Shown piece after piece: positions 3,113 through 19,175 of a stretch of 64,000 nt of DNA (the first letter of the stretch is position 1; each line of letters opens with the position of its first letter). The stretch comes from Parcubacteria group bacterium GW2011_GWA2_48_9. Its GTDB lineage: Bacteria; Patescibacteriota; Patescibacteriia; UBA10025. The position numbers and the translations under genes were made by a program. The stretch is from contig LCPQ01000019.1 of assembly GCA_001003705.1 (NCBI GenBank), positions 3,268-67,267 on the forward strand, in the 5' to 3' direction. A model generated the notes under the pieces. It did not search any database and was not told where the DNA came from. It saw nothing but the letters and a program-made list of their open reading frames with translations.

Positions 3113-3622
3113 ATGACGTCTTCAAAGTTATCACTGATAGTGTTCGGTGGTGCATTGGCCGTGCTGCTATCCGCCTGCACCCCTGCAACCAATAGTCCGG
3201 TAAATACGACGGTGAACACCGCCAATTCTGTCATGGCGAACGGCACGAATGTTGCGTCATCAAACACGGCTAACAGCATTGATCCCTGCTCTCTCATCAC
3301 CCAGGCCGAGGCAGCGTCAGCTTTTGGGCTGCCGGCGCAGATACCGGAGCCGAAAGGTACGGTGTGCCGCTATGACACGGTTGAGCAAAGCAAATTTTTC
3401 GACCTGACTGCGAAAGCAGGCACGAGTTCGGATTTCGAGACGATGCAAAATTTATGCAGCACCACCGAGCCGGTAGACGGCCTGGGCGAGACGTCCTGCT
3501 CCGCGAACAATACCATTGTCGTGCTGAAGAACGGCATCCTCATGACAATCATCGCCGGCGGCAACTTTGACCAGGACCAGCTCAGGGGCCTGGCGGTAAT
3601 AGCGGTCGGCCGGATTCCGTAG
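3113..3622 (+). CDS. hypothetical lipoprotein
   Basis: Signal peptide with lipobox LLSAC; no recognisable domain. Confidence 0.45.
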   Translation: MTSSKLSLIVFGGALAVLLSACTPATNSPVNTTVNTANSVMANGTNVASSNTANSIDPCSLITQAEAASAFGLPAQIPEPKGTVCRYDTVEQSKFFDLTAKAGTSSDFETMQNLCSTTEPVDGLGETSCSANNTIVVLKNGILMTIIAGGNFDQDQLRGLAVIAVGRIP

Positions 3623-12351: not shown

Positions 12352-12924
12352 ATGGATGCAGCTAGGGAACGAAGCGTGCTTGAAGCGTGCCAACGGGGTG
12401 ATACGGAAATGTTCGGAGAGCTTTACGACGCATATATTGAGAAAATTTATTCGTTCATTTTTTATCGAACGAGCCATCGGGAGACGGCGGAGGATTTGAC
12501 GAGTGTGACGTTCACGAAAGCGCTGGAACATATCAGCACGTTCCGTGGCGGTTCATTCTCGTCCTGGCTCTACCGCATCGCGCGGAATACGGTGACCGAT
12601 CATTATCGGACGTCGAAGAACGTTACGTCCCTCGATGACGCTATAGCTGTGATGGCCGGGAAGTCGGACGTAGAGGACAGCGAACGCCGGCTCATTATCG
12701 AACAGGTGAAGCAGTATCTGCACACGTTGAAGCAGGAACATCAGGATGTGGTGCTGATGCGGATCTGGGACGATCTGCCCTATGAACGCATAGCGGAGAT
12801 AACGGGTAAATCAGAGGCCAACTGTAAAATGATCGTTTCCCGTTCCTTGAGCTCCATCAGGAAACAGTTCGCTATAGCTGCCGCGCTTATTCTTATTGGA
12901 CTATTATTTTTTCACCTCTTATGA
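12352..12924 (+). CDS. RNA polymerase sigma-70 factor, ECF subfamily
   Basis: Sigma-2 and sigma-4 regions (FGELYDAYIEKIYSFIFYR..., DLPYERIAEITGKSEANCKMIVSRSL). Its stop overlaps the next gene's start (ATGA). Confidence 0.85.
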   Translation: MDAARERSVLEACQRGDTEMFGELYDAYIEKIYSFIFYRTSHRETAEDLTSVTFTKALEHISTFRGGSFSSWLYRIARNTVTDHYRTSKNVTSLDDAIAVMAGKSDVEDSERRLIIEQVKQYLHTLKQEHQDVVLMRIWDDLPYERIAEITGKSEANCKMIVSRSLSSIRKQFAIAAALILIGLLFFHLL

Positions 12925-14282
12925 CCATTCATGAAAAGATCGAAAGTATTATGAAAGAACTCATCGACAACGACCCAGAACTCAAAAGTCACGAAAAGGC
13001 CGTGAGGCATATTGTTGCTTCGCTTCTGCAGGCGCGTCCGGATGCTGTCGTCGATGATACGTTTCGGGCCGAACTCAAACGGCGCCTTCTCGAAATGCCC
13101 GCTCCCTCGAGAGTTTCTCGATCGATGGGGCTATCGCGGACGTTCACACAATTTTTTAGCAATAAACTTGCTCTCGCTACTTCAGCCGCTGGCGTCGTGG
13201 CAGCGTTGCTTTTTATTACTCTCTGGATGAACTCGGGCATCCAAGACTCCTCACAGCGAACCATCCCGGTCATCCAGGGCGACGTGGAATTTTCTTTGAG
13301 CGCCCTGAATCAGGACACGCTGGGCGTCGACGCGACTAGTGCGTTTGCGCTTACCTCAAGTTTGCCGGTTGACGAAACGGCCATACGAGGAAACCTCACG
13401 ATCGAACCGGCAGTTCAATACAAACTTGAATCATCGGACTCGAATGAATTTACCATCATTCCCGAACAGACGCTCGACGCCAATACAATATACAAATTCA
13501 GCATGGTCGCCCAAAAGAGCGAAGCGGAACAGAAACGCGAATACCAATGGGCATTTCAGACCAAAGATACGTTTAAAATCATGAACACGCTTCCGCGCAA
13601 TCAGGGTACCCACGTCCCTCTGGATACCGGAATCGAGGTTACCTTTTCACATGAGAATTACGGCGCTGTAGAGGACCATTTCTCCGTTTCACCGGCTGTG
13701 AATGGCCGGTTCGAACGGTATCGGAAGACGCTCGTCTTTGTACCCGATTCGCTCCAGGCAAGCACGGTGTACACAGTCCGCGTCAGTGCCGGCGTACCGC
13801 TAGATGGCACTGATCAAACACTGGCCGAAGACTACCAGTTTCAGTTCGAAACCGATGCAACCGGAGGATATGGCGGGTACTACTCATACTTCGAGTTTAC
13901 AAAGGACTTCTTTGAGTACCCGAGTACTGAAACGCCAATCGCGACGGTATACGGCTATGACAGTCCTGGGTCAGTGCATGTCGGTGTCTATGCGTTTGGA
14001 ACGTTTGGCGAATTCCGCGACGCAATTGGTAGGCTGAACAACGTTCCGTATTGGGCTGACTATGCGCAGATGAATAACACGTTTCCCGTTGACAGCCTGG
14101 CGCTCCAGACTGAGTTCGACGCTGATGTGCGCTCGGAAGACTATCAGTATTACATCGAGTTCCCGGAAGCCCTTCCGAATGGCTACTATCTCATAGACAT
14201 TCCGGTAGACAGCTATCACGCGCAGGCCTTTCTCCAGGTCGGCAATTTGGCAGCCAGCTACCAAGCGAGCCCAGAAAGATGA
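12921..14282 (+). CDS. N-terminal part of giant anti-sigma-like / alpha-2-macroglobulin-like protein (cytoplasmic helical domain, 1 TM, SbsA-type Ig-like domain); probably continuous with 14293-18261
   Basis: About 90-aa cytoplasmic domain then TM (LALATSAAGVVAALLFITLWM). Big_5/SbsA-Ig-like stretch (FKIMNTLPRNQGTHVPLDTGIEVTF...TVYTVRVSAGV). No Cys. The downstream ORF's frame stays open upstream of its GTG start, across the 14282 stop. Confidence 0.55.
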   Translation: MTIHEKIESIMKELIDNDPELKSHEKAVRHIVASLLQARPDAVVDDTFRAELKRRLLEMPAPSRVSRSMGLSRTFTQFFSNKLALATSAAGVVAALLFITLWMNSGIQDSSQRTIPVIQGDVEFSLSALNQDTLGVDATSAFALTSSLPVDETAIRGNLTIEPAVQYKLESSDSNEFTIIPEQTLDANTIYKFSMVAQKSEAEQKREYQWAFQTKDTFKIMNTLPRNQGTHVPLDTGIEVTFSHENYGAVEDHFSVSPAVNGRFERYRKTLVFVPDSLQASTVYTVRVSAGVPLDGTDQTLAEDYQFQFETDATGGYGGYYSYFEFTKDFFEYPSTETPIATVYGYDSPGSVHVGVYAFGTFGEFRDAIGRLNNVPYWADYAQMNNTFPVDSLALQTEFDADVRSEDYQYYIEFPEALPNGYYLIDIPVDSYHAQAFLQVGNLAASYQASPER

Positions 14283-14292
14283 ATACGGTGAC

Positions 14293-17200
14293 GTGGCAGG
14301 GACGTATTACTTTTCGGTTACGGCCAATGACCAGCAACTTCTCGTGCCGGTGACTCACTATTACGGTTTCGGCGGCTATTACGGATCTACTGCGCCGAGA
14401 GACTATTGGGCGTATCTCTATACGAATCGGACTCTCTATTCTCCCGATGACAGTGTGAAGTTCTGGGGCGTGATCAAGCCGCGGTCGGGTGTCGGCGACG
14501 TCGATGAAGTAGAGGTGCGTTTCGTGAAAAGCGCCAACTACTACACCTCCAGTCAAGACGAGATCATCTCGCAGCAGCGCTTGCCCGTTTCATCGTTTCA
14601 TACTTTCCAGGGATCGATTGATTACACACATCTCACGCCAGAGGGGTACACGCTGCAGGTTCTGGTGGGGGACGAGGTGGTGATGACCTCGTACGTTTCG
14701 GTGGCTACCTACACGAAGCCGGCGTACAAGATCGACGTGACGACTCCGAAGAAAGCGATCTTCCAGGGTGAGAACGCCGTCTTCAATATCCAGTCGGTGT
14801 TTTTTGACGGGACACCCGTAGGCAACCTCGAACTCGAGTATACAGGCGCGCTCGGAGGCGGACGGGTGACTACCGATGAGAACGGTCAGGCAACCGTGAC
14901 GCTCGGTACCTCATACCAGGCTGATTCCTCTTCTCCTCGGTACGAGTACTTTTCAATTCATCCGACAAACGCGGAGCTGGCCGGCATTTATACCGATGCG
15001 TACATTTACTCATTCGGTCCGCGGTATTCCATCGAAGGATCAGCCACGGCCGAAGGGGCTCTGAGTGGATCAGTACATGCAGTCGACCTGGAACGCGTCA
15101 ATGCCGCGGGGGATGAGTTTGTCTGGGATTATGACGGCGATCCTGTCGCAGGCGCGAAGGTCACCATGACTGTATACCACGAGTACTACACCAGGACGGA
15201 AATAGGCACCCGTTATGACTTTATCAGCAAAAAGACTTACAAAACATACGATTACCAGCATCACTCAGATGAGGTACAAGAACTCACGGCATTCACAGAT
15301 GCAAATGGGGCGTATGCCGGGCAGTTCACTCCGCAAGCGGACCAGAATTATTTGATTAAGATGGAGGTGACTGATCCAGAAAGCCGGACAGCAGGAACAT
15401 CCGCCTATGTTTGGGAGGGACTTCGTTCGTACTACTTCGGCGATGGGTATGAGCGGTACTACATAGAAACTCTCGGAGGTACTGAAGGGCCGTATCGCTC
15501 CGGCGACGAGGTGACGCTTGGCCTCTTTCGCAATGAGGAGCGCCTGCCGGAGCAGAGCGGCGAGAGTATCCTGTATTTCAAAGGCCAGCGCGAGCTTTTT
15601 GACATCGCCCCCTCATCACAGTCCAGCACGACGCTCACTGTTACCGATGCGTACGCACCGAACATTTACGTGTATGCAGTATACTTCGACGGCCGTGCGT
15701 ACCACTTAGCTGATTTTTCACAGATCACGTTTGATAAGAGCGTTCGAGAGCTCTCGATCGATATAGCGCAGGACAAAGACGCCTACCGCCCAGGCGAGAA
15801 TGTGACATTGGACCTGACGGTGACTGAAGCTGACGGTGATCCCGTCGAAGCCCTGCTCAACGTTTCTGCCATCGATGAGGCTTTGGCAGTCATCCAGTGG
15901 GAAAACAGCAACGCGATCCTTGATACGCTCTACCGATCACTTCCATCTGCCGTCACCTACTCATACCAAACTCATGAGCAAGCGCTTCGCCCGATGGCTG
16001 AAGGCGGCGGGTGTTTTTCCGGGGATACTGGAGTTCTCATGTCAGATGGGACCACCAAGCCAATCTCCGAAGTGCGGATCGGCGACGAGGTGTTCACCTT
16101 TACTTCGCCAGGCGACATGACGCTCGTACCTGCTCGAGTAGTAAACACGCTCGAACATAACGTCGACAAGTACCTCGTGATCAACGGTTTACTCACCGTG
16201 ACGCCGGAACATATCGTGTGGCTCAATGACCAGTGGCAGCCGATCGGAAACGCGAGGGTCGGTGACCGCATTGTCAATGCTCATGGCGAGACTGTCCGGC
16301 TCACCAGCATTGAGCGGAATCACGAGTTGCTCACAGTCTACAATCTTCATCTCGATGGACCGCATACCTTCTTCGCGAACGGCGTCTACGTGCACAATGA
16401 AAAAGGCGGCGGCCGCCAAAACTTCCAGGACATAGCAGTATTTGAGAGTGTTGGGACTGATCGAAACGGACGCGCTACCGTCACGTTTAAGCTTCCGGAC
16501 AACGTAACCTCATGGCAGACGACGGTGCACGCGGTAACTGAAGACTTGCAAGCGGGCGCGACCCAAACAGCCGTCATCTCCACGTTGCCGTTTTTCGTTG
16601 ACGTCGCTGTCGCGTCTGATTATGTGGTGGGCGACAGGCCGCAGGTATTGGTGAGAAGCTTCGGACGCGAACTTGGCGATTCACAGATCACGTACACAGT
16701 GAGCTACCCAGACTACAGCGACGAAGAGACGACACTGACTGGTGCAGCTGGTGAAGTGACGTCTGTGGCACTTCCCGAGTTCACTGAAGGAACGTACAAA
16801 ATCCGTGTGGCTGCCAAACAGAGCGGCAATGAAGACGCAGTGATCCATAGCTTTACGTTTCATGATTCGAATATCACCCAGGGTACGGCGGGTTACTATC
16901 GCCTCGAGGAGGACATGGCCGTCGCCGGCAGCCCCGATGGCCGCACTTCTCTCGCATTCACGAATCTCGAACGCGGACAGTATTACTATGACCTCCGTGG
17001 CATGACGTGGGCGTATGGGGACAGGCTTGAGCAGCAGTTGGGGCGGCGACAAGCGCAGTCGCTTCTCAACGAGTACTTCGGAGAAAGTGCCAATGTGCCG
17101 AATATTACGTTTACCGACTATCAAGTGCCCGAGGGAGGACTCGCCATCTTGCCCTATTCGTCGGCTGAGCTGCTCCTGACAGCAAAGGCGTTCCTGGTGG

Positions 17201-18261
17201 CTCCCGACCTTTTTGACCGTATTGCCGCGCGCCAATACTTCGAAAGCGTACTGAACAATACCGGCAGCAATACCGAAGAGGTCGTCTACGCGCTCCTTGG
17301 CATGGCGGCGCTTGATGAGCCGGTGCTCACTGAGATCAACATCTTTCTGGAAAGTCATGAGCTCGAGCCGGAGTTGAAACTCTATCTCATACGTGCGGTG
17401 GCGCATCTCGGGGCGACGGAGTATGCGGCGTCCATGCTTCAGGATATTTTGGACGAGCATGCGAATGTTTCCGATCCTGTGACCGAAGTCGCGCTTGGCG
17501 AGGACCACGACGACTACGTCGAGTACACGTACCAAGCGGCAATAGTCGCAGCCGCCGTGTCTTCCGATCAGGCTCCGCTTCTGTATCGGTATGTGACGAC
17601 TACGCCGGCCACCTTCCATCTGAATGCGTTGGACCAGCTAGCGTATATCCAGACGGCATTGCCACTTTTGAGTGGAGACCCGGTGAGTTTTTCCTACACG
17701 CTCGACGGCGAATCACACGATGTAACTCTCGCGCGCGAGGATACGTTCAGACTATCGGTCGTCCCTGAACAACTCGAAAATCTTACCTTCTCTGATATCA
17801 GCGGTACTGTCGGACTCGTCGCGAGCTATGAAGAACCGGTCGATCTCGCAACCGTAGAGACAGATCCGAACCTGAGAATTAGCCGGCGCTATGAAGTGAA
17901 TAGCCGCGGGACAACCACGTTCCATGCCAATGACATCGTGAAAGTCATCCTTTCACCGAGCATCAACATAAAGGCGATAGATTCCGAATATCAGATTACC
18001 GACTACCTGCCCGCAGGATTAAAGCTGCTCACCAACCTGTCTTCGAGAGACTTGTCGTACGACCGGCTTCTCGAATTCCCCTATGAGATCAATGGCCAGG
18101 TCGTGAAATTTTGGAGCGGCAAACCGCGTAGTGCAGAGTTTTTCTACTACGCGATCGTCACCGGGAAAGGGGAATTCGTCGCTGAAGCGCCGAAAGTGCA
18201 GGGTTTCGTCGCGACAGGGAGCGTGAACTACGGGACGACCGAACGGGTCATTATCGAATAG
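14293..18261 (+). CDS. alpha-2-macroglobulin-like protein (thioester-less) carrying a Hint/intein-like domain at the bait-region position
   Basis: RQNFQDIAVFESVGTDRNGRATVTFKLPDNVTSWQTTVHAV matches the A2M R.NF.ET..F....TDENG.A.V.F.LPD.ITTW motif that follows the bait region. No CxEQ motif. Hint domain lies directly N-terminal to that motif. Confidence 0.6.
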   Translation: MAGTYYFSVTANDQQLLVPVTHYYGFGGYYGSTAPRDYWAYLYTNRTLYSPDDSVKFWGVIKPRSGVGDVDEVEVRFVKSANYYTSSQDEIISQQRLPVSSFHTFQGSIDYTHLTPEGYTLQVLVGDEVVMTSYVSVATYTKPAYKIDVTTPKKAIFQGENAVFNIQSVFFDGTPVGNLELEYTGALGGGRVTTDENGQATVTLGTSYQADSSSPRYEYFSIHPTNAELAGIYTDAYIYSFGPRYSIEGSATAEGALSGSVHAVDLERVNAAGDEFVWDYDGDPVAGAKVTMTVYHEYYTRTEIGTRYDFISKKTYKTYDYQHHSDEVQELTAFTDANGAYAGQFTPQADQNYLIKMEVTDPESRTAGTSAYVWEGLRSYYFGDGYERYYIETLGGTEGPYRSGDEVTLGLFRNEERLPEQSGESILYFKGQRELFDIAPSSQSSTTLTVTDAYAPNIYVYAVYFDGRAYHLADFSQITFDKSVRELSIDIAQDKDAYRPGENVTLDLTVTEADGDPVEALLNVSAIDEALAVIQWENSNAILDTLYRSLPSAVTYSYQTHEQALRPMAEGGGCFSGDTGVLMSDGTTKPISEVRIGDEVFTFTSPGDMTLVPARVVNTLEHNVDKYLVINGLLTVTPEHIVWLNDQWQPIGNARVGDRIVNAHGETVRLTSIERNHELLTVYNLHLDGPHTFFANGVYVHNEKGGGRQNFQDIAVFESVGTDRNGRATVTFKLPDNVTSWQTTVHAVTEDLQAGATQTAVISTLPFFVDVAVASDYVVGDRPQVLVRSFGRELGDSQITYTVSYPDYSDEETTLTGAAGEVTSVALPEFTEGTYKIRVAAKQSGNEDAVIHSFTFHDSNITQGTAGYYRLEEDMAVAGSPDGRTSLAFTNLERGQYYYDLRGMTWAYGDRLEQQLGRRQAQSLLNEYFGESANVPNITFTDYQVPEGGLAILPYSSAELLLTAKAFLVAPDLFDRIAARQYFESVLNNTGSNTEEVVYALLGMAALDEPVLTEINIFLESHELEPELKLYLIRAVAHLGATEYAASMLQDILDEHANVSDPVTEVALGEDHDDYVEYTYQAAIVAAAVSSDQAPLLYRYVTTTPATFHLNALDQLAYIQTALPLLSGDPVSFSYTLDGESHDVTLAREDTFRLSVVPEQLENLTFSDISGTVGLVASYEEPVDLATVETDPNLRISRRYEVNSRGTTTFHANDIVKVILSPSINIKAIDSEYQITDYLPAGLKLLTNLSSRDLSYDRLLEFPYEINGQVVKFWSGKPRSAEFFYYAIVTGKGEFVAEAPKVQGFVATGSVNYGTTERVIIE
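16012..16398 (+). other. Hint (intein-like / bacterial intein-like) domain, 129 aa, no endonuclease, inserted in-frame in the A2M-like protein
   Basis: Block A CFSGDTGVLMSDG (Cys1), block B TVTPEH (TxxH), blocks F and G LTVYNLHLDGPHTFFANGVYVHN. The +1 residue is Glu, not Cys/Ser/Thr. Flanked by GGG on both sides. Confidence 0.7.
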
Positions 18262-18266
18262 GAACT

Positions 18267-19175
18267 ATGCTGAAGCGCTGGTATGCGGGTCTATTGGTCA
18301 TCGCTGTCTGCGCTGTCGCTGGTGCGGTCTATTATTCGGTAGAGTCAAGCGGTGCCATCGATGTGGCCGTAACGTATGGGGATGAACCACGTGTGCTTGA
18401 CTCGAAATTCTACTTTGAGAAGCAGTTTACCCGTTCGGTAGAATCGGCAGCAACGAACGATGCGGTATTCCCGCAATCGCGTATCAGGGGCGGGATTATT
18501 CCCCACGACGTGACCCAGGGCCAGATCATTGCCCACTTTTTCCGTGAGCTGGAGAAAAATCCCCCGAAACGGATCATCCTCGTTGGCCCTAACCACTACG
18601 AACGCGGTGGAAGCATGGTGCTGACGACATCAACATCCTGGAGATCTGGGGCGGGCACGATACACGCTGATCGGGATGCGGTACGTTGGCTTGTCGACAA
18701 TCACTACGCGGTTGAAGATGATGAGGTAGCAGTTGACGAACACTCTATTGCAGGAATCACCCCGTACATTTCACACTATCTGCCTGAGGCACGAGTGATA
18801 CCGCTGATGCTGAAAGCCGAAGTTCGTCTCAACGAAATTCAGTCCATCTCGCGAGCGCTCGATGAGTTAGTTGACGACGAGACAGTCGTCATCGCCGCCG
18901 TGGACTTCTCGCATTATCTTACTGCCGATGAAGCTTCACGAAACGATATCGTGACTGAACAGGCGTTGCAGACATTTGACTATAAAAATATGCTTTCATT
19001 CGGCCCTCGCTTTAATGATTATATGGACTCACCCGGCAGTATTGCCTTGCTCCTCTACTGGTTGACGTCACAGGGTATAACGAAGTATGAACTGATTGAA
19101 CATACCAATTCCGGCATCCTTACCGGCGATATGACGAGCCCGGTAACAAGTTATTTTGAAGTCGTCTATTACTAG
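18267..19175 (+). CDS. MEMO1/AmmeMemoRadiSam-system-protein-B-like protein with N-terminal TM anchor
   Basis: MEMO family motifs: GGIIPHDV, ILVGPNHY, DEHSIAGITPYISHYLPEARVIPLML, VDFSHY. N-terminal hydrophobic segment LLVIAVCAVAGAVYY. Confidence 0.55.
   Translation: MLKRWYAGLLVIAVCAVAGAVYYSVESSGAIDVAVTYGDEPRVLDSKFYFEKQFTRSVESAATNDAVFPQSRIRGGIIPHDVTQGQIIAHFFRELEKNPPKRIILVGPNHYERGGSMVLTTSTSWRSGAGTIHADRDAVRWLVDNHYAVEDDEVAVDEHSIAGITPYISHYLPEARVIPLMLKAEVRLNEIQSISRALDELVDDETVVIAAVDFSHYLTADEASRNDIVTEQALQTFDYKNMLSFGPRFNDYMDSPGSIALLLYWLTSQGITKYELIEHTNSGILTGDMTSPVTSYFEVVYY

Follow-up and report, generated by a model that had tools for sequence, protein, structure and literature searches.

What does an intein-like Hint domain do inside the bait loop of a macroglobulin? 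The question is raised by a 64,000-nucleotide stretch of DNA from Parcubacteria group bacterium GW2011_GWA2_48_9 (assembly GCA_001003705.1, contig LCPQ01000019.1, forward-strand positions 3,268 to 67,267), hereafter called the window, whose first letter is position 1. An open reading frame (ORF) at 14293..18261 encodes the larger part of a protein resembling α2-macroglobulin (A2M), and residues 574-702 of this ORF are a Hint domain with the translation CFSGDTG...TPEH...HTFFANGVYVHN. The analysis showed that the domain is an A-type bacterial intein-like (BIL) Hint, similar to pretoxin-HINT (PT-HINT), inserted in the Gly-rich bait loop; the host, an A2M-like protein, is anchored in the membrane and lacks a thioester. 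Judged from its sequence and from the behavior of related domains, it probably excises itself from the bait loop independently of any protease, with a nicked two-chain form as the most likely major product. The domain and its two junctions are as follows.

16012..16398, + strand: mini-Hint domain (A-type BIL-like), 129 aa; Cys1 at 16012-16014, block B TPEH at 16201-16212, terminal His-Asn at 16393-16398.
15958..16011, + strand: disordered N-side bait linker YSYQTHEQALRPMAEGGG, ending in the −1 residue Gly573; predicted local distance difference test (pLDDT) <50, model residues 187-204.
16399..16416, + strand: C-side junction EKGGGR; +1 is Glu703, a non-nucleophile, and +2 is Lys704 (16402-16404).

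The terminal His-Asn is encoded by codons CAC AAT (16393-16398). With junctions marked by a slash, the flanks read AEGGG/C on the N side and HN/EKGGGR on the C side. Both Pfam Hint (30.3 bits; cut-off 29.7) and Pfam Vint (29.9 bits; cut-off 27) recognized the domain, as did PT-HINT when the Hint segment was scanned in isolation (30.8 bits; cut-off 27.7) and NCBIfam TIGR01443 intein_Cterm (22 bits vs a cut-off of 15.6). A phmmer search of PDB gave BIL2 of Tetrahymena BUBL as the top match (E 3.5e-7), followed by Hedgehog, Vint and a RecA mini-intein. In an AlphaFold2 (AF2) model of the Hint and its flanks, pLDDT was 95-98 in the core and <50 in the flanks. When this model was compared with PDB by Foldseek, the top two matches were BIL domains: 6Y75/6TMM (E 9e-13, template-modeling score (TM) 0.78-0.81) and Clostridium thermocellum 2LWY (TMt 0.85, root-mean-square deviation 1.7). 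Classical inteins and Hedgehog structures ranked beneath them. There were 65 PDB matches at E ≤ 1e-3, and the 50 listed were all BIL, intein, Hedgehog or Vint domains. Several independent tests thus agreed, well past chance, and confirmed that 16012-16398 is a genuine Hint domain. An earlier note, written from the letters alone, had described a complete mini-Hint at residues 574-702 that is BIL-like and has no +1 nucleophile. This description held, with BILs closest by both sequence and structure, and the alignment to Hint models that it proposed as a check put Pfam Hint, Vint and PT-HINT all over their cut-offs.

A-type BIL domains end in His-Asn and have no +1 nucleophile; they form a thioester at the N-junction and cleave the C-junction by Asn cyclization (PMC4031507). 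The window domain has the N-terminal Cys and TxxH, the C-terminal His-Asn, and no Cys, Ser or Thr at +1. It has no homing endonuclease, since 129 aa leaves no space for one, and it is located in the disordered bait loop of an exported, surface-type protein. Other Hint classes did not fit. The +1 residue of a class 1 intein would be Cys, Ser or Thr, and here it is Glu. A Hedgehog/Hog assignment is contradicted by the terminal His-Asn, by the A2M macroglobulin (MG) domain that starts ~17 residues later, and by the absence of an adduct-recognition region after the Hint. Pretoxin-HINT (PF07591) is the best or near-best Pfam Hint model for the A2M-Hint family; unlike pretoxin proteins, however, the window protein continues after the Hint with the C-terminal half of the A2M fold (A2M/MG, TED-like and C-terminal MG domains), and no toxin family was detected there. 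NCBI labels several homologues "polymorphic toxin-type HINT domain-containing protein" or "Ig-like domain-containing protein"; the former is a product of automatic annotation and does not assign a function.

The position of the Hint was determined relative to two Pfam matches in the ORF, between which it lies.

15487..15885, + strand: Pfam A2M_BRD match, residues 399-531 (1.3e-15).
16450..16647, + strand: Pfam A2M match, residues 720-785, the MG domain after the bait region (2.1e-9); also aligned by phmmer to Xenopus A2M 7S62.

In a 59-member alignment, Hint-bearing proteins read AEGGG/C...HN/xKGGG.R..F.D and Hint-less proteins read AEGGG-GGD..R..F.D in the same columns. By this alignment, the Hint is a clean insertion in a short Gly-rich loop. 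A profile aligned the Gly-rich loop with ...AALRF-GGDGDELKRGG... of the Escherichia coli A2M (ECAM), and the insertion point fell opposite ECAM residues ~948-957, within the bait region. ECAM numbering was taken as chain index +38, an offset fixed from residues named in PMC4498604. In ECAM, Arg923-Leu942 is disordered after cleavage, and Arg956, Gly958 and Asn963 lie in the "cleaved bait region" (PMC4498604). The only internal stretches with pLDDT <50 in an AF2 model of residues 370-1322 were 556-573 and 704-706, the linkers around the Hint. A homologous bait loop is therefore present and predicted to be disordered, but it is occupied by a folded Hint. These findings support the placement of the Hint in the bait loop. 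The earlier note had also put the domain in the bait region and had proposed a comparison with orthologues; the ECAM alignment and the disordered linkers agree with the former, and Hint-less relatives have their short Gly-rich loop exactly at the Hint site.

To assess conservation, we pooled 87 A2M-Hint proteins from an exhaustive search (see below) with those of the first homologue search, which gave 112 A2M-Hint proteins. Cys1 and the terminal His-Asn were present in all 112, and the block B Thr and His were invariant in a 34-sequence alignment. Gly was found at −1 in 110/112 and at −2 in 104/112. The +1 residue was D in 48, E in 31, Q in 18, S in 5, N in 4, A in 3, G in 2 and T in 1, and never Cys; judged from these sequences, it is not a conserved nucleophile. 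Position +2 was Lys in 105/112. The host flanks of these proteins have diverged to 20-30% identity. At the level of sequence, the Hint was thus shown to hold every residue called for by both Hint half-reactions, and to have kept them across very diverged hosts.

We propose the following course of events. After export and folding, Cys574 would attack the carbonyl of Gly573 in an N-S acyl shift assisted by the Thr and His of TPEH, giving a Gly573 thioester. Asn702, together with His701, would cyclize and break the Asn702-Glu703 bond, and the Hint would leave the bait loop. Because +1 has no Cys, Ser or Thr, the thioester would have to be resolved by water or an amine. Water would yield a nicked two-chain protein, one chain ending in ...AEGGG and the other starting with EKGGGR.... 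With an amine (the α-amine of Glu703 or the ε-amine of Lys704), a peptide or isopeptide bond would link the two halves again. Since A-type BILs examined so far mostly cleave, the nicked form would most likely be the major product. These BILs can re-join their flanks via amine attack, and their products in vitro are mainly those of cleavage (PMC4031507). BIL2 resolves its thioester on a Lys ε-amine to form an isopeptide, and other proteins can become conjugated to its N-extein (PMC8616854). The conformational change of A2M is set off once the bait region is untethered (PMC4498604), so that the predicted self-nicking should switch the ectodomain with no protease present. We commit ourselves to the view that both junctions are catalytically active, as residues and precedents would predict, and that the domain would carry out bait-loop scission or remodeling with no protease involved.

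The Hint Cys1, Cys574, is the sole Cys in the 1322-aa ORF, and the upstream 453-aa piece of the protein has none. The earlier note's claim of a single cysteine is therefore correct. Window ORFs of ≥200 aa average 0.72% Cys, from which ~13 Cys would be expected in the A2M-like protein. In many relatives, likewise, the catalytic cysteines are the only ones. The thioester site was sought in the following domain.

16972..17667, + strand: TED-like all-helical domain, residues ~894-1125 (AF2 secondary structure); holds AYGDRLEQQ.

AYGDRLEQQ at 17011-17037 aligned column by column with canonical YPYGC[VT]EQ, with Arg911 (17023-17025) in place of Cys. By this alignment it is a degenerate thioester site, as the earlier note had suspected. 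The motif CxEQ was absent from the window protein and from P0001-P0062. The thioester-less clade, Hint-bearing and Hint-less members alike, has GDR[LVI][DE]Q aligned to the canonical thioester motif, and the column of the thioester Cys is an invariant Arg in every aligned member (GDRx[DE]Q). This invariance suggests that the site may have kept some other role, e.g. in a salt bridge, rather than having simply decayed. Thioester-less members of the A2M superfamily are known, and loss of CxEQ is compatible with membership.

Among the 112 A2M-Hint proteins, 21 keep canonical YPYGCxEQ ~225 residues past the Hint. They belong to a separate, canonical subfamily, in which the domains are MG2, A2M_BRD, Hint, A2M, TED_complement and bMG10. 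Several of them (within P0163-P0240, e.g. P0164 and P0170) have exactly two Cys, the Hint Cys1 and the thioester Cys. Conversely, many thioester-less relatives have no Hint. The presence of a Hint in the bait loop is thus independent of thioester loss. Since 21/112 retain YPYGCxEQ, the Hint is not a substitute for the lost thioester, and replacement of CxEQ by a Hint-made thioester was rejected as a general explanation. The connection that the earlier note had implied between the missing thioester and the Hint does not hold in general either, and its proposal that the trap may fire autocatalytically is only partly supported.

The remaining features of the host gene are listed below.

12921..14282, + strand: 5′ part of the A2M-like gene; ~80-aa cytoplasmic N-extension, one transmembrane helix and Big_5 Ig-like domains (Pfam Big_5 match).
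14293..18261, + strand: remainder of the A2M-like gene, 1322 codons; MG domains, bait-region domain, Hint, A2M/MG, TED-like and C-terminal MG domains.
17683..18258, + strand: C-terminal β-sandwich, counterpart of MG/MG10 (AF2 strands, model residues 762-952); some homologues match PF17973 bMG10.
14266..14292, no strand: mis-joined scaffold gap; ~143 nt (~47 codons, VNSFIW...SPSEI in P0002) missing and frame shifted.

The host has the architecture of the A2M superfamily: MG domains, a bait-region domain, a TED and a C-terminal MG domain. A family profile built from Hint-less and canonical bacterial A2Ms matched ECAM (5A42) with E 2e-133 over ~1500 positions. The AF2 model of residues 370-1322 (pLDDT 89, predicted TM 0.69) had ECAM as its best Foldseek match (E 1.4e-31), and its other top PDB matches were Salmonella A2M, eukaryotic A2M, C3 and CD109. 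The TM of this model was higher to protease- or methylamine-activated A2Ms (4ZIQ 0.44, 7S64 0.47, 6TAV 0.44) than to native ones (5A42 0.29, 4U48 0.26); we did not rely on this comparison, which may be an artefact of a partial model with uncertain AF2 domain packing. The GC content of the A2M-like gene was 54.5%, vs 49.3% across the window.

The gene is split in the window into ORFs 12921..14282 and 14293..18261, which lie in different frames. An ENA copy of the scaffold from the same organism (L001) has NNNNNNNNNN, with a run of ten N, and 126 extra bases at the break (L001 5965-6100), and the protein from this scaffold, P0001, is 100% identical to the window protein. P0002, an 83% identical homologue, has ~47 additional codons at the window break and a length of ~1820 aa, and in homologues P0002-P0020 the 5′ part is fused to the rest of the A2M-like protein. 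Because the break coincides with the run of N in the ENA copy, the two-ORF split is an assembly artefact, and the true protein has ~1820 aa. A real frameshift or pseudogene was ruled out as the cause, given that the break falls on the ENA scaffold gap. Short GAGCCC repeats border the missing piece at 14266-14292. The ~1775 residues that the earlier note had treated as one large ORF do belong to one protein, but they are not contiguous in the window. That note had included neither the assembly error nor the N-terminal membrane anchor, nor the genomic context (an ECF sigma gene and a Memo-like gene) described below.

The distribution of the architecture was examined by an exhaustive phmmer search with the Hint over 1.84 billion cluster representatives, which gave 10,801 relatives at E ≤ 1e-3. 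The top 150 of these included 87 A2M-like proteins with a single Hint. A word-indexed homologue search with the Hint alone, which had found only 7 small PT-HINT proteins and none of the A2M family, was superseded by the exhaustive search. A scan of one genome per GTDB species, queried with Hint-plus-flank segments, revealed 78 loci, 74 of them A2M-Hint genes. The loci belonged to Parcubacteria, Kerfeld-, Peregrini-/Peri-, Gracili-, Magasanik-, Uhr-, Pace-, Sacchari-, Portnoy-, Shapiro-, Levyi- and Amesbacteria, and nearly all A2M-Hint proteins and loci carry Patescibacteria labels. Many metagenome-assembled genomes (MAGs; at L010, L014-L016, L018, L019, L034, L040 and others) are titled "uncultured Gammaproteobacteria" or "Pseudomonadales", and one is titled "Candidatus Nanoarchaeia archaeon". 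Such records are probably mislabeled or wrongly binned; it is less likely that the gene was transferred to a DPANN archaeon.

Mean pairwise identity was 46% for the Hint vs 39% for the host, and the two co-vary (r = 0.76); the Hint is thus no less conserved than the protein around it, which speaks for its activity. In GC content, overall and at third codon positions (GC3), the Hint does not differ from the host gene. This match, the lack of an endonuclease and the co-variation of identities left the idea of a recently inserted mobile element unsupported. Hint identity holds at ~46% while that of the host flanks falls to 23%; as the proteins in this comparison had been chosen for their Hint similarity, the difference was not taken as a sign of lateral transfer. 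On a crude neighbor-joining tree, Hint-bearing proteins were paraphyletic and Hint-less ones were interleaved with them, which indicates losses or repeated gains of the Hint.

The nearest non-A2M relatives of the Hint carry 2-5 (up to ~9) tandem Hints (P0063, P0098, P0100, P0103, P0117 and ~60 more), spaced solely by KG, KGG or KGGG (HN/KGGG/CF). Position +1 was Lys in 121 of the ~160 Hint units of these proteins. Tim44-like domains follow the tandem Hints in the five array proteins for which Pfam data were available. We know of no description of tandem Hint arrays.

The A2M-like gene stands between two genes with recognizable products.

12352..12924, + strand: extracytoplasmic function (ECF)-type sigma-70 factor gene; Pfam Sigma70_r2 5e-16, Sigma70_r4_2 5e-9.
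18267..19175, + strand: Memo-like gene (PF01875) with an N-terminal hydrophobic segment; Pfam Memo 1.1e-28.

In the window the sigma gene stop overlaps the A2M-like start by 4 nt (ATGA), and a 4-nt overlap was also found in L004. The sigma gene is adjacent upstream in L006, which has a Hint-less relative, and in the P0027 locus. Across the 74 genome loci, a sigma ORF was directly upstream in 30 of the 66 that could be assessed, and a Memo-like ORF directly downstream in 33 of 70; a Memo-like gene also lies downstream of the A2M-like gene in L002-L006. ECF sigma, membrane-anchored A2M-like and Memo-like genes thus form a recurrent three-gene cassette, which occurs with the Hint-less relative (L006) as well.

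An N-extension of 35-95 aa precedes the single hydrophobic helix in 45 of 98 full-length relatives, and the rest begin with the helix. When seven Hint-bearing loci were inspected by hand, all three with the extension had a sigma neighbor; the three with the shortest N-termini had none, nor did P0035, with 11 residues before its helix. Its gene order and membrane topology are those of a transmembrane anti-sigma factor, which suggests that the A2M-like protein may act as one. Precedents for autoproteolysis in such factors are RsgI (PMC10328401) and those with SEAL domains (PMC10556640). Speculatively, self-nicking in sigma-linked genes could serve as a built-in "site-1" or maturation cleavage of a surface sensor, and the protein of a sigma-linked locus might be such a sensor rather than a simple protease trap.

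Several points weigh against protease-independent self-excision. The predicted activity is deduced from residue conservation, and conservation of catalytic residues is also expected of a purely selfish, cleanly splicing intein-like element. For the 21 CxEQ relatives, a Hint that always nicked its loop would apparently squander the thioester, which favors re-ligation or regulation of the reaction in those proteins. Re-ligation via the +1 α-amine or the near-invariant +2 Lys is as compatible with the data as autocatalytic firing is. The profile alignment was of only moderate confidence over the Gly-rich loop, the tree and the identity comparisons were crude, and the choice of relatives on Hint similarity biases the Hint-versus-flank comparison. 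As to sigma control, the N-extension matched no anti-sigma domain model in Pfam and NCBIfam scans, so that this idea comes from gene order and topology, and about half of the loci have no sigma gene. One rival explanation is a benign passenger that splices cleanly via the +1 α-amine and leaves an ordinary bait loop, AEGGG-EKGGGR, in a protease-triggered A2M, with no adaptive role. The joined flanks would give a loop much like the Hint-less AEGGG-GGD..R, the −1 Gly is ideal for ligation, and the tree shows Hint-bearing and Hint-less proteins in a patchwork, as if an element had been gained and lost. A nucleophilic side chain is not needed for ligation by A-type BILs (PMC4031507), and 2LWY is among the top fold matches. 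The Hint also stands beside an intact thioester in 21 relatives, where early nicking would harm. Such an element, however, has no homing endonuclease to account for its spread or persistence, and a disordered loop should tolerate a dead Hint, yet 0/112 lost Cys1 or His-Asn. The near-invariant +2 Lys is left unexplained, as Hint-less loops have no such Lys; A-type BILs in vitro yield mainly cleavage products; and the Hint is fully ameliorated in composition and co-varies with its host. We consider this explanation unlikely. The retention of all catalytic residues across 112 diverged homologues tells against a catalytically dead structural plug or bait. An ordinary class 1 intein fares no better: its mechanism is excluded by a +1 residue that is Glu here, Ser or Thr in 6/112 and Cys in 0/112, there is no endonuclease domain in the 129 aa, and BILs outrank inteins among the structural matches. 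That the Pfam scores barely exceed threshold, and that weak matches to intein-containing families were seen, are the points in favor of a dead insert or intein, to which we give hardly any credence.

The fate of the thioester allows a further explanation, in which a BIL2-like reaction passes the Gly573 thioester to a Lys ε-amine, either that of Lys704 in cis or one on another protein. In the latter case, the partner conjugated to the membrane-anchored N-fragment could be an attacking protease or a protein on the host-cell surface, in analogy to the A2M thioester. BIL2 is the closest solved relative by sequence and fold, forms isopeptides between a Lys ε-amine and a C-terminus, and conjugates its N-extein (PMC8616854); identity to it is just ~26%, however. 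The N-flank ends in Gly-Gly-Gly and resembles a ubiquitin-type C-terminus, and a Lys lies beside the C-junction (+2 in 105/112 A2M-Hints, +1 in 121 of ~160 units of the nearest non-A2M relatives), but GGG and KGGG may be mere flexible linkers. Pure conjugation in trans would not need the terminal Asn, yet this Asn is invariant, and the CxEQ-retaining relatives would bear two covalent warheads. We regard it as quite improbable. An extended form would join this chemistry to the sigma factor: the A2M ectodomain of a transmembrane anti-sigma factor would use the Hint-made Gly thioester as a protease- and ATP-independent conjugation device, somewhat like the "ubiquitin dispenser" of Tetrahymena BUBL, with the membrane-anchored N-half becoming isopeptide-linked to Lys704 or to lysines of a foreign protease or host-cell surface protein, and this event or scission would free the ECF sigma factor. 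That proposal is a long shot. Self-excision with nicking of the bait loop thus remains the reading that we prefer.

The domain was compared with known systems. A-type BIL domains were reportedly described by Amitai et al. in 2003 and by Dassa et al. in 2004. The A2M Hint shares with them the mini-Hint fold, the N-terminal Cys, TxxH and His-Asn, the lack of a +1 Cys, Ser or Thr and of an endonuclease, and a location in an exported bacterial protein, at a place that is variable and exposed. In contrast to them, its host is an A2M and its site the bait loop, its flanks are strongly conserved (GG/C...HN/xK-GG), and it occurs at a single site across many lineages of the candidate phyla radiation (CPR) rather than sporadically. 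Tetrahymena thermophila BIL2 (6TMM/6Y75) resembles it in an N-extein that ends in Gly-Gly before Cys1, and in that its thioester is reportedly taken up by a Lys amine, to be compared with the near-invariant Lys by the A2M-Hint junction. BIL2 is, however, eukaryotic, cytosolic and flanked by ubiquitin-like domains, and its isopeptide has been reported, whereas the A2M Hint is known from sequence and predicted structure.

The host shares with bacterial A2Ms (ECAM/YfhM and SaA2M; the thioester-less YfaS/MagD type) the MG body, the bait-region, TED-like and C-terminal MG domains, and anchorage at the cytoplasmic membrane. It differs in the replacement of the thioester Cys by an invariant Arg (GDRx[DE]Q), in the Hint that fills the bait loop, and in having Big_5 domains and a transmembrane helix instead of a lipoprotein anchor. 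Its neighbors are ECF sigma and Memo-like genes; pbpC or yfaP-T, the partners described for the known bacterial A2M types, were not seen. Autoproteolytic anti-sigma factors and receptors (RsgI, SEAL, FecR-type, GAIN/SEA) are similar in being single-pass and ECF-sigma-adjacent with a putative self-cleaving extracytoplasmic module, but the module here is a Hint (thioester plus Asn cyclization), not SEAL, SEA or GAIN. A literature search, to which most subscription journals were closed, found no report of a Hint, intein or BIL in a macroglobulin, or of CPR macroglobulins. The Hint hit is already visible in databases; the host and the bait-loop site are the new context for a BIL-type Hint.

To our knowledge, every A2M or complement-type protein studied to date needs an external protease to cut its bait or activation loop. 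The occurrence of the present architecture in >100 protein clusters and at least 74 species-level Patescibacteria genomes suggests protease-independent switching or maturation of the A2M fold. It links BIL/Hint chemistry, the A2M conformational trap and ECF sigma/anti-sigma signaling, three areas previously unconnected. The Gly-Gly/Cys...His-Asn/x-Lys junction may serve as a protein-ligation or isopeptide-forming tool. The domain also offers a functional handle on one of the largest CPR surface proteins, in a group whose cell-surface biology is nearly uncharted. If the conjugation proposal were true, episymbiotic ultra-small bacteria would have on their surface a covalent sensor of contact and proteases of a novel kind.

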